Shown in pieces: positions 56,388 to 60,610 of a stretch of DNA of 64,000 bases; within the stretch, counting starts at the first letter, position 1, and the number at the start of each line of letters is the position of its first letter. The stretch lies in contig CACBMB010000008.1 of assembly GCA_902540275.1 (NCBI GenBank), positions 9,623 to 73,622 on the forward strand, given 5' to 3'. The notes under the pieces were generated by a model. It was not told where the DNA came from, ran no database searches, and saw only the letters and a program-made list of their open reading frames with translations. Made by a program: the position numbers and the translations under genes. This stretch comes from an uncultured Pelagibacteraceae bacterium. GTDB lineage: Bacteria > Pseudomonadota > Alphaproteobacteria > Pelagibacterales > Pelagibacteraceae.

Positions 56388-57761
56388 ATGAATTATATTA
56401 GTACAAGAAATAATCAGAAAAACTTTACTTTTAAAGATGTTTTCCTCAAAGGTTTGGCAGATGATGGGGGGCTATTTGTGCCTCAATCAATCAAACCATT
56501 TAAAAAAGAGGAATTAGAAAATTTTAAAAACCTTAGTTACAATGATTTAGCGGCTGAAATAATTTATCCATTCATAGGAGATTTCATGTCTAAAGATGAC
56601 CTAATCTCTTTGATTTCAAAATCATACTCAAATTTCAGATGTGATGATGTTGTAAAAATTTCAGATCTGGGAAATTTAAAAGTTCTAGAACTATTTCATG
56701 GCCCCACTCTTGCATTTAAGGATATTGCAATGCAATTAATAGGTAATTTTTATCAATATCATTTAGGACGTGATCAAAAAAAAATAAATATAATTGTTGC
56801 AACTTCAGGTGACACTGGTGCAGCTGCTATAGATGCTTTAAAAGGAAAAAATAATTTAAATGTTTTTGTATTTCACCCTAATAATAAAATTTCACCGGTA
56901 CAAAGAAGACTTATGACAATTCACGAAGAGAGTAACGTATTCAACATTGCAATTAAGGGTAATTTTGATGATTGTCAAAATTTAGTAAAAGCAATGTTCA
57001 ATGATGAAGAATTTTCTAAAGAAATTAATATGTCGGGTGTAAACTCAATTAATTGGGCAAGAATTGTTGCACAATCAGTATATTATTTTTACGCTTACTT
57101 CAAAGTTGGAAACGATCAACCTTTATCCTTCTCTGTTCCAACAGGAAACTTTGGTGATATTTATGCTGGTTATTTAGCAAAAAAATTAGGTCTCCCAATT
57201 GATAAACTAATCGTAGCTACAAATAAAAACGACATACTACACAGAGCTATATCTGGCGGTGACTACAGTCAAAAAAAAGTTGAGGAAACAAATACACCAA
57301 GTATGGATATACAAATAGCGAGTAATTTTGAAAGGCTTTTATATGATGTAAAAGATTGTAACTCAGACGTTACAAAAAATGTAATGGCTGAAATAAAAAA
57401 AAATACTTATAAAATTGATAAAAATGATCTAGATAAAATTAAAAAGAATTTTATATCTGAAATGCTTGATGAAAACGAAACTGTTGAAATGATAAAAACT
57501 ATCAATGATGAACATCAGATGGTAATTGATCCTCATACAGCGGTGGGGATTGGTGCTGTGAGAAAATTAGGATTGGAAAAAAATTGTGTTGTATTATCTA
57601 CTGCTCACCCGTGTAAATTTCCAAAAGCAATAGAAGATGCAATTTCAAAAACTGAAAATTTACCAGATAGTCTTAAATATATTAATGATAGAAAAGAAAA
57701 ATTTGAACTTCTCTCAAATGATATTGAAAAAGTTAAAAAATATGTAATGAATTCGATATGA
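56388..57761 (+). CDS. thrC: threonine synthase
   Basis: YISTRN start, PLP-lysine context FHGPTLAFKD, SGDTGAA. Confidence 0.9.
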   Translation: MNYISTRNNQKNFTFKDVFLKGLADDGGLFVPQSIKPFKKEELENFKNLSYNDLAAEIIYPFIGDFMSKDDLISLISKSYSNFRCDDVVKISDLGNLKVLELFHGPTLAFKDIAMQLIGNFYQYHLGRDQKKINIIVATSGDTGAAAIDALKGKNNLNVFVFHPNNKISPVQRRLMTIHEESNVFNIAIKGNFDDCQNLVKAMFNDEEFSKEINMSGVNSINWARIVAQSVYYFYAYFKVGNDQPLSFSVPTGNFGDIYAGYLAKKLGLPIDKLIVATNKNDILHRAISGGDYSQKKVEETNTPSMDIQIASNFERLLYDVKDCNSDVTKNVMAEIKKNTYKIDKNDLDKIKKNFISEMLDENETVEMIKTINDEHQMVIDPHTAVGIGAVRKLGLEKNCVVLSTAHPCKFPKAIEDAISKTENLPDSLKYINDRKEKFELLSNDIEKVKKYVMNSI

Positions 57762-58246
57762 AACTTAAAATAAAAGATCAACTACCAGATACAGAGATTT
57801 TTCAACTTATCGATGGAGAACCACAAAAAAGCAAATTAAGAGAGACCATTGGTAATGGTAAAGCTGTTTTATTTGGTTTACCTGGGGCATTTACATCTAC
57901 TTGCTCCAAATTTCACCTACCAGGCTTTGTAGCCAATGCTGATAAAATTAAAGCAAAAGGGATAGAAAATATATTTTGTTTATCAGTAAATGATCCTTAT
58001 GTGATGAATGGCTGGGGTGAGATTAATAATACAGGAGATAAAATTAAAATGTTATCTGACCCATATTTATTATTTACGAAAGCAATTGGAGCAGAAGTTG
58101 ATCGGAATGCAAAAGGAATGGGAATTAGATCAAATCGTTATTTGATGGTAATTGAAAATTTCACAGTCGTTAATATTCACGTTGAAAAAGAAACCAAAGA
58201 ATGTGGTTTAACTTCAGCAGAGAACCTATTAAATAATCTTATCTAG
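57758..58246 (+). CDS. Prx5-type peroxiredoxin
   Basis: LFGLPGAFTSTCS peroxidatic-Cys motif; 162 aa. Confidence 0.85.
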   Translation: MKLKIKDQLPDTEIFQLIDGEPQKSKLRETIGNGKAVLFGLPGAFTSTCSKFHLPGFVANADKIKAKGIENIFCLSVNDPYVMNGWGEINNTGDKIKMLSDPYLLFTKAIGAEVDRNAKGMGIRSNRYLMVIENFTVVNIHVEKETKECGLTSAENLLNNLI

Positions 58247-58254
58247 GTAGGGCA

Positions 58255-58274
58255 GTTCTGTTGCCAGGTGCCCC
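58255..58274 (+). repeat. direct repeat copy 1 (candidate attL core)
   Basis: GTTCTGTTGCCAGGTGCCCC, starting 8 nt after the prx stop and identical to 60166-60185. Similarity continues as (G)AACT downstream and TAGGG upstream. Confidence 0.9.
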
Positions 58275-58286
58275 GAACTTTGTACC

Positions 58287-58302
58287 ATTATTCGCGAATA
58301 AT
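58287..58302. repeat. perfect 16-bp palindrome ATTATTCGCGAATAAT
   Basis: Self-complementary over all 16 nt. Lies between the repeat core and the tandem GTGCGGA motifs, upstream of the islet operon. Confidence 0.85.
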
Positions 58303-58333
58303 TTGAATTGAAAAGTGAGATTTTGCAACCCAA

Positions 58334-58358
58334 GTGCGGATATAGTGCGGACAGAATT
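58334..58358 (+). repeat. tandem GTGCGGA motifs, 11-nt register (left inner flank)
   Basis: GTGCGGAtataGTGCGGAcagaatt, 21/25 identical to 60096-60120 in the same orientation. Confidence 0.85.
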
Positions 58359-58379
58359 TCCGTGCTAGGATCTCTGATT

Positions 58380-58844
58380 ATGAATTTATTTAATGACAAA
58401 GATGGAAAGTTCAAAAGACTTGAAAAAATTATTTTGGATATAGAAAAAGAAAAACACACAATAAGCTGGGCTCACACAACAATACAAAGTTGCCTTTGGA
58501 ATCTTGAGAAGAGTCCAAACCTAACAAAATTTGATTTAGAATTGATTGCTAAAGATTTAAGAGAAAATTTAAATAAAAAAGAAGAAGCCCAAGCCAAAAT
58601 AATGGAATTGCAATATAGTACTCTAAAAGTTGAAATGGGTATCCTTAATCTAGGAAATCAAACCCATGCACTTTTAAGACAGGTAGAGGAAATGAAAGAG
58701 AAAGCTGGTATTAATAACTTATGGAAACATGAGGAGGATAAAAGGTTAAATGAACATTTTAAAAAACATCCTGAAGATGTTGGAACACTTCATATTACAG
58801 AAAATTCGTGGACATTTGATTTTAGCAAAAAGAAAAAAAAATGA
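58380..58844 (+). CDS. 154-aa all-helical hypothetical protein, translationally coupled to the downstream nuclease gene
   Basis: ATG 58380 is preceded by TAGGA at -13 to -9. The track's TTG start at 58308 would run through the repeat motifs. The stop overlaps the next ATG (ATGA at 58841-58844). No motif recognised. Confidence 0.6.
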   Translation: MNLFNDKDGKFKRLEKIILDIEKEKHTISWAHTTIQSCLWNLEKSPNLTKFDLELIAKDLRENLNKKEEAQAKIMELQYSTLKVEMGILNLGNQTHALLRQVEEMKEKAGINNLWKHEEDKRLNEHFKKHPEDVGTLHITENSWTFDFSKKKKK

Positions 58845-59761
58845 ATAGCCTAAATGAAATACTGAATGCTTTTATAATCCAGTCAAAAACTGGCAACCTT
58901 AAAGTATCTCACTATCCAAAAGAATATTTAGATTTGAAAATGAAAGTTTCATTTGGCATGGGAGCTTCTGCAAAAATACCTTGGATATCATTTACTGGTA
59001 AAGAAATGCAAACTAGCAATGGTTTTTACCCGGTATATTTATATTATAAGTCATCAGGAAAATTAATTTTATCTTATGGAATTAGTGAAACTAAAGAATT
59101 TAAGATAAGCTGGCCTGAAGATATAATTGCTAATAAGCAAAAGATTAAAGATTACATAGATGATCCTTTTAGATATGGCGACTCATGGGTCTATAAATCA
59201 TACATACCTAGCACTTCAAGTAGTAGTGAAGATGTTAAATGGTTTGCTGGAGACAATAGACCTTTAAATCCAAATGAACTTGAAACAAACCTAAAAGAAA
59301 TAATCGATCAATATAAAACAGCTGCATCAATTCAAATAGATGATGTTAGCTCACCTCTTAACCAGGGGATGTTTTATTTAGAGTCTCAACTAGAAGAATT
59401 CATAATTGAAAATTGGGATCAAACAGAGTTAGGTCAAAAATACGATTTAATAAAAGAAGACGGAGAATTAGTAAGTCAACAGTATCACACAGATGTTGGT
59501 ATTATAGATATATTAGCTAAGGATAAAGTTAATAAGAATCATGTAGTAATAGAGTTAAAGAAAGGTCAGACTAGCGATAAAACAATAGGACAGTTAACCA
59601 AGTATATGGGCTGGATAAAAAAACATAAAAACGATGAAAAAGTAAAAGGAATTATAATAGCTGGAAAGTATGATGAAAAATTATTTTATGCAGCCAAAAT
59701 GGTACCTAATGCTGAAGTGTTTTTGTACGAGGTGCTTTTTAGATTAAAAGAATTTAAATAA
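58841..59761 (+). CDS. fusion of an MrcB-N (DUF3578)-like DNA-reader domain and a NucS/DUF91-like PD-(D/E)xK nuclease domain (candidate type IV restriction enzyme)
   Basis: N-terminal half: KVSFGMGASAKIPWISFTGKE..SNGFYPVYLYY..GKLILSYG, resembling the McrB-related N-terminal domain pattern. C-terminal half: ESQLEEFIIENW...DVGIIDILAKD...HVVIELKKGQ...IGQLTKYMGW, a D-x14-ExK nuclease core. Assigned by eye. Confidence 0.6.
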   Translation: MNSLNEILNAFIIQSKTGNLKVSHYPKEYLDLKMKVSFGMGASAKIPWISFTGKEMQTSNGFYPVYLYYKSSGKLILSYGISETKEFKISWPEDIIANKQKIKDYIDDPFRYGDSWVYKSYIPSTSSSSEDVKWFAGDNRPLNPNELETNLKEIIDQYKTAASIQIDDVSSPLNQGMFYLESQLEEFIIENWDQTELGQKYDLIKEDGELVSQQYHTDVGIIDILAKDKVNKNHVVIELKKGQTSDKTIGQLTKYMGWIKKHKNDEKVKGIIIAGKYDEKLFYAAKMVPNAEVFLYEVLFRLKEFK

Positions 59762-59766
59762 AAATT

Positions 59767-60096
59767 ATGAAAAAACTTTTAGGGATCGTGGTTCTGGGTT
59801 TGTTGTGGCCAAGTTTAGTTAATGCAACAACCTATGCAGTGGAGTTTACTGAAAGTTCTCTTTATGCAGATTTTACAATAGAAGTTTCAACCAGCTCTCT
59901 TTATGCTGACGAGACTTGGAACATTGTTGGAAGTTGTAGAAATGAATTTAACTATTCTACGATTGAAATATCAGAAAATTCTCTTTATGCAGATAAAACA
60001 ATAGATATTACAACCAGCTCTCTTTATGCTGACAGAGATATTTGTATTAAAAATCCTGACTCTCTACCAGAATGGTTTTTGGAGATGTTAGATTAG
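59767..60096 (+). CDS. small secreted protein with four SLYAD motifs (internal 41-aa duplication)
   Basis: Signal peptide MKKLLGIVVLGLLWPSLVNA, then (E/N/S)SLYAD four times. The DNA repeats are in frame at 59856, 59894, 59979 and 60017. Two Cys residues. Confidence 0.6.
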   Translation: MKKLLGIVVLGLLWPSLVNATTYAVEFTESSLYADFTIEVSTSSLYADETWNIVGSCRNEFNYSTIEISENSLYADKTIDITTSSLYADRDICIKNPDSLPEWFLEMLD

Positions 60097-60120
60097 TGCG
60101 GACACAGAGCGGATAGAATT
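60096..60120 (+). repeat. tandem G(T/A)GCGGA motifs, 11-nt register (right inner flank)
   Basis: GTGCGGAcacaGAGCGGAtagaatt. Overlaps the stop codon of the SLYAD gene and lies 45 nt before repeat copy 2. Confidence 0.85.
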
Positions 60121-60165
60121 AAATTTAACAAAATAATTGTTGATAAATATAAGATGCTAGGGGGC

Positions 60166-60185
60166 GTTCTGTTGCCAGGTGCCCC
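60166..60185 (+). repeat. direct repeat copy 2 (candidate attR core)
   Basis: GTTCTGTTGCCAGGTGCCCC, ending 2 nt before the rnhA stop codon. Confidence 0.9.
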
Positions 60186-60187
60186 AA

Positions 60188-60610
60188 CTAAAAATTTGCA
60201 GCATTTTTAGCGAGTAAATCTACTTCATTATTTAATTCATCAGTTGAATGGGCTTTTACCCAATTCCAACTAATTTCAAACTCATTACTTAGTTGATCTA
60301 ATTCTGTCCAAAGTTCTTTATTGCTTACTTCTTTTTTGTTTACAGTTTTCCATCCATTTTTTTTCCAATTGTGAATCCACTCCGTTATTCCAGACTTTAC
60401 ATATTTAGAGTCTGTAAAAATTTGAACTTTGCTTCCTTTTGGAATTTTTTTAAGAGCCTCTATAGGCGCTAATAATTCCATTTGATTATTTGTAGTATCT
60501 TTTTTACTTCCTTTTATTCCGGTTTTTTTTCCATCGTTTAATATTATTGCTGCCCAACCACCTCTACCTGGATTTCCAATACATGAACCATCAGTGTATA
60601 TTTTAATCAT
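60188..60610 (-). CDS. rnhA: ribonuclease HI
   Basis: IKIYTDGSCIGNPGRGGWA, MELLAPIEAL, TDSKYV, WNWVKAHS. Confidence 0.95.
   Translation of the reverse strand: MIKIYTDGSCIGNPGRGGWAAIILNDGKKTGIKGSKKDTTNNQMELLAPIEALKKIPKGSKVQIFTDSKYVKSGITEWIHNWKKNGWKTVNKKEVSNKELWTELDQLSNEFEISWNWVKAHSTDELNNEVDLLAKNAANF

Follow-up and report, generated by a model that had tools for sequence, protein, structure and literature searches.

A probable mobile gene cassette without its own recombinase gene at a tmRNA-hairpin site between prx and rnhA in a SAR11 genome

Genes and repeats at the prx-rnhA junction

The analyzed stretch of DNA, hereafter the window, comprises 64,000 nucleotides of contig CACBMB010000008.1 (positions 9,623 to 73,622; assembly GCA_902540275.1) from an uncultured Pelagibacteraceae bacterium. 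In this window, the peroxiredoxin gene prx and the RNase HI gene rnhA are separated by a 1.9-kb islet of three genes bracketed by a perfect 20-nt direct repeat. The features of the locus are as follows.

57758-58246, plus strand: prx, the left chromosomal flank (Pfam Redoxin, Redoxin/AhpC, E = 6.4e-26).
58250-58274, minus strand: core copy A, distal in ssrA sense (P-O-B'), GGGGCACCTGGCAACAGAAC followed by TGCCC; the exact 20-mer is 58255-58274.
58275-58314, minus strand: conserved 40-nt P arm, TTTTCAATTCAAATTATTCGCGAATAATGGTACAAAGTTC in ssrA sense, present once in the window, with the perfect 16-bp palindrome ATTATTCGCGAATAAT at 58287-58302.
58333-58358, minus strand: P-side tandem repeats, two TCCGCAC(T) units 11 nt apart in ssrA sense.
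58380-58844, plus strand: ORF1, 154 aa, of unknown function, overlapping the start of ORF2 by 4 nt.
58841-59761, plus strand: ORF2, 306 aa, a McrB-type N-terminal DNA-reading domain fused to a PD-(D/E)xK nuclease, a candidate type IV restriction enzyme.
59767-60096, plus strand: ORF3, 109 aa, with a signal-peptide-like N-terminus and four SSLYAD-type repeats.
60095-60160, minus strand: P' arm, with tandem repeats at 60095-60120 (GTCCGCACT / ATCCGCTCT, 11 nt apart) and then a 40-nt spacer up to the core.
60161-60185, minus strand: core copy A', proximal in ssrA sense (B-O-P'), GGGGCACCTGGCAACAGAAC followed by GCCCC; the exact 20-mer is 60166-60185.
58275-60185, unstranded: the 1911 bp absent from the empty-site relative; the boundaries can be shifted by up to 20 nt within the repeat.
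60188-60610, minus strand: rnhA, the right chromosomal flank (Pfam RNase_H, 8.3e-47).

The 20-mer GTTCTGTTGCCAGGTGCCCC occurs exactly twice in the window, both times on the plus strand, and none of 100 shuffles gave two matches. The first copy starts 8 nt after the prx stop and the second ends 2 nt before the rnhA ORF. The 20-mer is 13/20 G+C (65%), and the repeat extends to 25 nt at 92% identity. Thus, the original prediction, which described this repeat and its placement, is confirmed. It did not include a second repeat pair, 58333-58358 and 60095-60120 (26 nt at 85% identity), in which each copy consists of two AGWGCGGA units 11 nt apart; these are the only four such units in the window. 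The palindrome was also not noted. There is no GC break at the islet, so the DNA is native to the SAR11 gene pool, and promoter and terminator scans were at background level.

No Pfam, NCBIfam or PADLOC family was found for ORF1, but a homolog at 38% identity lies in another cassette (locus L152). ORF2 matches Pfam MrcB_N (9.1e-08) and NucS_C (2.8e-14), PADLOC PDC-S02 (2.9e-44), the N-terminal part of McrB in NCBIfam (3.6e-19), and the EcoKMcrB N-terminal domain in PDB 3ssc (3.5e-18). The defence-like label of the original prediction therefore holds for ORF2. ORF3 contains an internal 60-nt direct repeat (59851-59910 and 59974-60033) and matches no family.

Identity of the repeat

The 20-mer is the reverse complement of the 3' end of the Rfam alpha_tmRNA model (RF01849), that is, of the terminal 3' hairpin of the alphaproteobacterial two-piece tmRNA gene ssrA. 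Neither Rfam at gathering thresholds nor ARAGORN found an RNA gene in the window, and the lead came from a permissive Rfam search, in which the window copy gave a sub-threshold match of 26.9 bits resting on the same motif. A resemblance of the 20-mer to SRP RNA, considered by eye, was rejected because Rfam gave no such hit. In relatives L018 and L068 the model scores 225.7 and 223.4 bits (gathering score 50), and the hairpin aligns to the 3' end of the model. ARAGORN calls a permuted tmRNA in 96 of 120 Pelagibacter loci that hold the 20-mer, and by flank 90 of 127 copies lie in ssrA. Thus, the 20-mer is not unique to variable DNA, and most copies in relatives lie inside a housekeeping RNA gene. 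In these 90-96 loci the terminal hairpin is the 20-mer plus GCCCC.

The core folds as a hairpin with a 5-bp outer stem, a 3-bp inner stem and a GCAA loop, although neither the hairpin nor the module is unusually stable (z about -0.3 to -1.1). Natural polymorphisms of the core include CCGGGTAAC versus CCTGGCAAC, and GCCCC versus TGCCC. Identity to ssrA is limited to the 25-nt terminal hairpin: an alignment of the P arm with ssrA upstream of the hairpin scored no better than shuffles.

Empty sites, alternative cargo and other locations

Empty sites exist. In a single-cell genome (L249/L251) with flanks 99.90-99.97% identical to the window, the prx and rnhA proteins are identical to those of the window and their genes lie 30 nt apart with one 20-mer between them. 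The window differs by a precise 1911-bp insertion. The flanks carry 1 SNP in 6.5 kb and 1 SNP in 3.8 kb (57378 and 61357). The bases beside the 20-mer sort as B-O-P' and P-O-B': the TGCCC tail and prx-side flank of copy A and the rnhA-side flank of copy A' equal the empty site, whereas the GCCCC tail of copy A' and what follows are of the element type. The empty attB junction reads ATCTAGGTAGGGCA-GTTCTGTTGCCAGGTGCCCC-AACTAAAAATTTGCAG. Metagenome contigs L250 and L253 are also empty, and the RnhA protein is identical in L251, L252 and L253. Other cargo sits between the same repeats at the same junction in L252, L037, L103 and L032.

The same cassette is found in other contexts at 99.8-100% identity. 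In marine contigs L281 and L282, ORF3, the P' arm and the core (99.8-99.9% identity) are followed directly by ssrA sequence, and L282 extends far enough to show the ANESYAIAA tag ORF and the acceptor end. In L272 the cassette lies after rnhA, and in L270, L280 and L283 it is adjacent to other cassettes. The same P' arm follows the genuine ssrA hairpin in L282 and L041, and follows rnhA in L103. Sister cassettes at the genuine ssrA are seen in L001, L016, L044, L056 and L083.

An abundant cassette family

The islet is one member of an abundant family and not a rarity, which the original prediction did not include. The shared architecture is a core, about 45 nt, two 11-nt tandem repeats, cargo antisense to ssrA, the same tandem repeats, the conserved 40-nt arm with its palindrome, and a core. 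The arm lies next to the core in seven genome loci found through the core alone (L001, L037, L056, L077, L083, L088, L103) and occurs in at least 120 marine metagenome contigs. The metagenome sample was drawn with the arm pattern itself, so arm conservation in that set is partly by construction; the sample drawn with the core only shows both conserved and diverged arms. The P-side tandem repeats sit at a fixed position about 20 nt upstream of the P arm in nearly all modules.

We observed 46 complete cassettes of 387-2545 bp, with ORFs 58:9 antisense to ssrA. The cargo is very diverse (58 clusters among 67 ORFs), and type IV restriction-like nucleases are recurrent. At least 15 tandem-repeat types are present. 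Tandem type is the same at the two ends of a cassette in 28 of 34 cases and across a core in 0 of 24, which places the breakpoints at the core.

Search for a recombinase and a circular form

No recombinase was found in the islet, the window or 1.37 Mb of related loci with an HMM of five integrases (lambda, HTVC019P, HTVC011P, XerC, XerD), phmmer searches with Int, XerC/D, IntE and PinE, and a box-II regular expression; the best marginal hits were an HNH nuclease and acetolactate synthase. A search with the HTVC019P integrase returned only that phage family.

In assembled contigs, without a search of raw reads, no attP or circular junction was seen: no core has the same tandem type on both sides, and the one contig with a terminal overlap, L191, ends in a tRNA fragment. 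No viral contig carries a cassette-type core or the arm. The 20-mer occurs in 8 IMG/VR contigs, all of them complete phage-borne tmRNA genes, and published pelagiphage att sites are in tRNA genes.

Origin of the islet

SAR11 genomes are the textbook case of streamlining and are described as free of classical mobile elements, yet their populations carry many small flexible islands of unclear origin. The original prediction, in which the repeats were attL/attR cores of a site-specific insertion lacking an integrase, is supported. Most probably, the islet is a non-autonomous mobile gene cassette of 1911 bp that entered the chromosome by conservative site-specific recombination with the crossover inside the 20-bp core. 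On this view ssrA is the primary attachment site of the family, and in the lineage of the window a solo copy of the hairpin between the stop codons of rnhA and prx serves as a secondary attB; the end of an RNA gene can be transplanted to make a new integration hot spot, although how a perfect solo hairpin first reached this spacer is unexplained. The inferred circular form would carry an attP made of the tandem repeats, the 40-nt arm with its palindrome, the core, about 45 nt of spacer, and the tandem repeats again, with the predicted junction ...GATGCTAGGGGGC GTTCTGTTGCCAGGTGCCCC GAACTTTGTACCATTATTCGCGAATAAT... This is the geometry of a lambda-type attP with arm-type sites. We infer that the enzyme is a tyrosine-type recombinase supplied in trans, from another element, a phage or the host, and that the tandem repeats and palindrome are its arm and accessory binding sites. 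Because no recombinase was identified in 1.37 Mb of related sequence, the central enzymatic step remains an inference, and the many integrase specificities that at least 15 tandem-repeat types would imply were not seen. A reading of the arms as IHF-consensus sites did not hold on inspection, nor, without comparison to the SAR11 dif site, did a dif-like reading, and a sigma-54-like reading of TGGCACA-N4-TGGCACA was rejected because other tandem types do not fit and because SAR11 apparently lacks rpoN.

A less likely explanation is that no dedicated recombinase is involved. Cassettes could be deleted or circularized by RecA-mediated or slippage events between the 20-25-bp direct repeats or the roughly 115-nt modules, re-inserted by short-homology crossover, and spread between cells by homologous recombination in the conserved flanking genes. 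In agreement with this scenario, no recombinase was found in cis or nearby and no attP junction was seen, the flanking genes are conserved enough to let whole occupied sites be imported, and direct repeats alone can explain the empty allele as a deletion. However, identity between attB and the element is only 20-25 bp, and even so the same cassette is joined precisely to ssrA, to rnhA and to unrelated cassettes. The stereotyped arm, the palindrome and the matched tandem repeats at fixed distances have no role in this model, and there are no flanking SNPs near the junction of the kind expected after import from a diverged donor.

Mobilization by a housekeeping recombinase, as XerC/XerD does for IMEX elements and the dif modules of Acinetobacter plasmids, seems still more doubtful. 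The elements are non-autonomous, small and arranged in arrays, no element-borne or phage-borne integrase was seen, SAR11 isolates seem to have almost no integrases beyond Xer, and one integrase was reported among 61 islands (PMC11796062). On the other hand, element-specific tandem repeats would be unexplained, and by inspection, without comparison to the SAR11 dif site, neither core nor arm has an 11-6-11 dyad, the only symmetry elements being the hairpin stems, 15 nt apart, and a spacer-less palindrome in one arm. The possibility that the islet is an immobile, decayed remnant of a larger integrase-bearing island or prophage, with fossil att sites, is strongly disfavored. The islet has no integrase, and remnants flanked by partial tRNAs are described for Prochlorococcus islands, but a relative with only 2 SNPs in 10 kb of flank lacks exactly the 1911 bp, and the same nearly identical cassette sits at ssrA and in other arrays. 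The cassettes keep one stereotyped P-arm module, both ends are intact and matched in 28 of the 34 complete cassettes that could be scored, and none contains integrase debris.

A more far-reaching scenario, which we consider speculative and rather unlikely, is that SAR11 runs an integron-like system of gene capture without a linked integrase. A dedicated but unlinked recombinase, or a recruited housekeeping enzyme, would recognize the tmRNA terminal hairpin together with the 40-nt arm and shuttle thousands of different 0.4-2.5-kb cassettes among ssrA and transplanted solo hairpins downstream of rnhA, pnp and other genes, with the classes of tandem repeats acting as specificity or incompatibility determinants. 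This would be the main route of gene gain, including restriction-type defence genes, in the most abundant streamlined bacteria.

Comparison with known systems

Genomic islands and prophages that integrate into the 3' end of tRNA/tmRNA genes (Williams 2002, NAR 30:866) are likewise flanked by a copy of the 3' end of ssrA and form arrays downstream of it by successive insertion, and the arm-like repeats on both sides of the core fit a lambda-type attP. Here, however, the element contains no integrase or excisionase, the elements are only 0.4-2.5 kb, and the copy in the window is not at ssrA but at a solo hairpin.

The additive flexible genomic islands of streamlined plankton share the ecological setting and the logic: repeated partial RNA-gene ends separate successive small insertions in genomes that lack classical mobile elements, integrases in the islands are rare or absent, and cargo includes defence genes. 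Tycheposons carry tyrosine or serine recombinases and replication modules, and these cassettes carry neither so far as our searches show. The conserved arm with its palindrome, the matched 11-nt tandem repeats and a secondary site made of a transplanted ssrA hairpin are not described in those papers, as far as we consulted them.

Integron gene cassettes are also small units of one to three ORFs with uniform orientation, arranged in arrays, with extreme cargo diversity and a recombinase outside the cassette. By inspection, there is no attC-type imperfect inverted repeat here, and the GTTCTGT of the core does not fit the GTTRRRY core. No IntI, attI or Pc was found next to the arrays, which start at ssrA, rnhA or pnp with no tyrosine recombinase in the flanks. 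The recombination site copies the end of an RNA gene, and the conserved module, a hairpin plus an arm, lies on the 5' side of the cargo. Non-autonomous att-flanked elements, such as the CIMEs of Streptococcus, IMEX elements and the pdif modules of Acinetobacter plasmids, would similarly be flanked by recombination sites, lack their own recombinase and be mobilized in trans; no cognate autonomous element is known for the cassettes.

For ORF2 alone, the closest systems are single-chain type IV (modification-dependent) restriction enzymes with a McrB-type N-terminal reader domain. ORF2 resembles them in fusing this domain to a PD-(D/E)xK nuclease with the motif GIIDIL...VIELKKG, but it has no McrB GTPase domain and no McrC partner, and its nuclease is of the NucS_C/YhcG type.

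Structure and Identity of the Repeat

The 20-mer GTTCTGTTGCCAGGTGCCCC is present exactly twice in the window, both times on the + strand, whereas none of 100 dinucleotide-preserving shuffles gave two matches. The repeat extends to 25 nt at 92% identity. Two further features lie inside the repeats and were absent from the original prediction, namely, a second pair of direct repeats, each copy of which is made of two AGWGCGGA units 11 nt apart, and a perfect palindrome. These four units are the only ones in 64 kb. On the + strand the order is core, arm, tandem, three ORFs, tandem, spacer, core, and these features are located as follows:
58255-58274 (+): first copy of the 20-mer, starting 8 nt after the prx stop
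58287-58302: perfect 16-bp palindrome
58333-58358: first copy of the second direct-repeat pair
60095-60120: second copy of the second direct-repeat pair
60166-60185 (+): second copy of the 20-mer, ending 2 nt before the rnhA ORF

In addition, visual inspection shows that on the + strand GTGCGGA-CAGAATT-TCCGTGC at 58337-58357, just upstream of ORF1, can form a 7-bp stem (with two G-U pairs) and a 7-nt loop, whereas on the minus strand the stem has A-C mismatches.

A permissive Rfam scan matched the minus strand of 58246-58371 to alpha_tmRNA (RF01849) at 26.9 bits (E = 1.9e-5), below the gathering score. The match rests on the 3' end of the model, ...GGUUCGGAGgcACCuGGCAACAGAA.acCucC, which is the reverse complement of the 20-mer. 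The collected loci that hold the 20-mer are all from Pelagibacterales, and in 96 of these loci ARAGORN calls a permuted (two-piece) tmRNA, with tags such as ANESYALAA and ANDKFALAA. The motif GGGGCACCTGGCAACAGAAC+GCCCC is the last hairpin of that gene. Rfam confirms two of these genes at 225.7 and 223.4 bits, with the hairpin at the end of the model. The hairpin folds with a 5-bp outer stem, a 3-bp inner stem, and a GCAA loop. The window itself contains no tmRNA or tRNA gene. Thus, the repeat is a transplanted piece of a housekeeping RNA gene, which is the classical kind of integration core.

The same terminal 20-mer was observed in eight viral contigs from IMG/VR, one of them from a 242-kb record. 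All eight carry complete permuted tmRNA genes; seven have the tag ADENLALAA, and one is called AKTINADENLALAA. These are phage-borne two-piece tmRNAs rather than attP fragments. Viral contigs hold the 20-mer only inside such complete phage tmRNA genes, and they never hold the arm.

Insertion at the prx-rnhA Junction

The exact Prx and RnhA proteins of the window are also encoded on a contig of a single-cell genome (GCA_902596245.1), where the two genes are 30 nt apart. The spacer reads ...ATCTAGGTAGGGCA GTTCTGTTGCCAGGTGCCCC AACTAAAAATTTGCAG..., with one core. The window aligns to that contig over 6.5 kb on the left and 3.8 kb on the right, with one SNP on each side (57378 and 61357), both more than 800 nt from the junction, and the two sequences differ by exactly 1911 bp. 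In ssrA sense (the minus strand), the copy of the core adjacent to rnhA keeps the rnhA-side flank of the empty site, followed by element sequence (GCCCCCTAGCATC...), whereas the copy adjacent to prx has the element arm (...ACAAAGTTC) in front, followed by the prx-side flank of the empty site (TGCCCTACC...). This is the B-O-P' / P-O-B' pattern, with the crossover somewhere inside the 20-mer. Two metagenome contigs (L250 and L253) are also empty, and one contig with an identical RnhA (L252) carries a different cassette. These data support the original prediction that the repeats are the attL/attR cores of a site-specific insertion into the prx/rnhA spacer. The repeat is neither a unique att sequence nor a mere dispersed terminator.

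In a widespread lineage whose RnhA is 91% identical (P0025, 116 contigs), rnhA and prx overlap by 6 nt in all ten places examined (L260-L269), and the five of those loci that were scanned hold no core-like sequence. Compared with that state, the lineage of the window has a roughly 31-nt insertion carrying the hairpin, placed exactly between the two stop codons. The secondary attB is therefore a lineage-specific acquisition.

Other Contexts of the Same Cassette

The exact ORF2 and ORF3 proteins occur on 12 and 7 short marine contigs, respectively, and their contexts differ. In two of these contigs (L281 and L282) the cassette end, consisting of ORF3, the P' arm, and the core (99.8-99.9% identical), is followed directly by ssrA sequence. 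L281 extends 27 nt beyond the core, whereas L282 extends far enough to show ...CCACCTCCACCA, GGGGGTGAAC..., the tag ORF ANESYAIAA, and ...AAACGGGGTCC before the hairpin. In contig L272 the cassette is followed by rnhA, as in the window, and in contigs L270, L280, and L283 it abuts other cassettes. Thus, one cassette sits in at least four contexts, always joined at the core.

In the cassette of the window, ORF2 combines an N-terminal domain homologous to the DNA-reading domain of EcoKMcrB (PDB 3ssc, 3.5e-18; NCBIfam 3.6e-19) with a C-terminal PD-(D/E)xK nuclease domain (NucS_C 2.8e-14; PADLOC PDC-S02 2.9e-44), and is a plausible single-chain type IV restriction enzyme. ORF1 has no family, but one homolog at 38% identity lies in another cassette. 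ORF3 is a small signal-peptide protein with four SSLYAD repeats, encoded by a 60-nt internal direct repeat (59851-59910 and 59974-60033) at 88% identity. The L270 copy of the cassette lacks 59871-60015, which is a repeat-unit deletion. There is no GC break at the cassette.

The Cassette Family

Five of the ssrA loci (L001, L016, L044, L056, and L083) carry a second core 0.7-3.9 kb downstream. Eight loci lie at the thrC/prx..rnhA junction; their cargo differs, and they include a three-cassette array (L103) and a perfect one-cassette site (L037). The cassettes share one architecture, which in ssrA sense reads: core, about 45 nt, two tandem units with an 11-nt (sometimes 12-nt) period, cargo, the same two units, about 20 nt, the 40-nt arm TTTTCAATTCAAATTATTCGCGAATAATGKTACAAAGTTC, and core. 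Nearly all of these show tandem, arm, and core in register.

The tandem units fall into at least 15 sequence types, for example, TGGCACA, TCCGCAC, ATCGCAC, TACGGGA, ATCGGCA, TTCGGAA, and TACGTAA. The type at the two ends of one cassette matches in 28 of 34 cases, whereas the types on the two sides of one core never match (0 of 24). This is what is expected if cassettes are units that are joined to each other only at the core.

Forty-six complete cassettes measure 387-2545 bp, and their ORFs run antisense to ssrA 58:9. The 67 ORFs fall into 58 clusters. The Pfam families among the 51 cluster representatives of at least 90 aa include restriction-type nucleases and associated domains, that is, MrcB_N (3 members), NOV_C (2), Mrr, NucS_C, PLDc_2, and GIY-YIG. 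Others are proteases, cytochromes, and unknown small secreted or membrane proteins. No recombinase or transposase family was observed among these families.

Solo or cassette-associated cores are also found downstream of two other genes. In L006, L008, and L053 the same hairpin lies 6-16 nt after the stop of pnp (polynucleotide phosphorylase), and in L006 it is followed by a sequence that elsewhere follows the core as an element arm (L086 and L088). This is a third chromosomal attachment site. In L045, L073, L082, and L109 the core is preceded, in the sense orientation, by a conserved gene for a secreted protein of about 68 aa (MKK...AGSCPM...AQxLRDAGMKAH...), with GGGGTTT before the core as in ssrA; it is an atypical cassette type without the 40-nt arm. 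A second family of ssrA-adjacent elements, found downstream of ssrA in L011, L042, L080, L091, and L110, has a 12-nt tandem period (units such as TACGAAG or CACGAAG) and a different P' arm. Where the ORFs were examined, its cargo includes a large 669-aa ORF (L091), and L080 carries two ORFs with no Pfam family. Finally, a 1900-bp Tara contig (L191) starts and ends with the same 39-nt tRNA 3' fragment, followed by a tandem GATCGCA repeat, and also contains an ssrA-type module. Cassettes with tRNA-type cores seem to share the tandem-arm architecture and to mix with ssrA-type ones.

Candidate Mechanism of Integration

No recombinase was found among 1639 ORFs from 1.37 Mb, comprising the window plus all SAR11 loci. 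The ORFs were searched with an HMM built from lambda Int, the HTVC019P and HTVC011P integrases, XerC, and XerD; with phmmer using the same proteins, IntE, and PinE; and with a box-II regular expression. All of these searches gave only noise.

The geometry of the site resembles a lambda-type attP, with paired direct arm repeats at about -95/-75 and +45/+65 from the core and a palindromic accessory-like site. For that reason we favor a tyrosine recombinase acting in trans, although this is an inference, and both a recombinase-free route and a host-enzyme (Xer-like) route remain open. A geometry similar to that of the P' arms of the cassettes is observed in pelagiphage HTVC011P, where three TGTTGCA units lie about 25 nt after the tRNA-Leu copy of the phage (L257, 5690-5740). 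These units are possibly arm-type sites or phage promoters.

Relation to Known Integration Systems

Genes for tRNA and tmRNA are known integration hot spots. In Prochlorococcus, islands next to 7 tRNA genes and the tmRNA gene are fed by integrase-bearing tycheposons and contain scattered partial tRNAs. A 2025 study of SAR11 single-cell genomes reports 61 small islands, of which seven are linked to tRNAs and one to a tmRNA; partial tRNA repeats mark cassette insertions, and there is only one integrase. The present case fits and sharpens that picture of additive islands targeted to tRNA and tmRNA genes. Here, the ssrA terminal hairpin is used as the core of an abundant family of integrase-less cassettes. 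To the features described in the passages of those papers that we consulted, our analysis adds the exact core, the stereotyped arm and matched tandem repeats, a transplanted secondary site, and strain-level evidence of recent movement.
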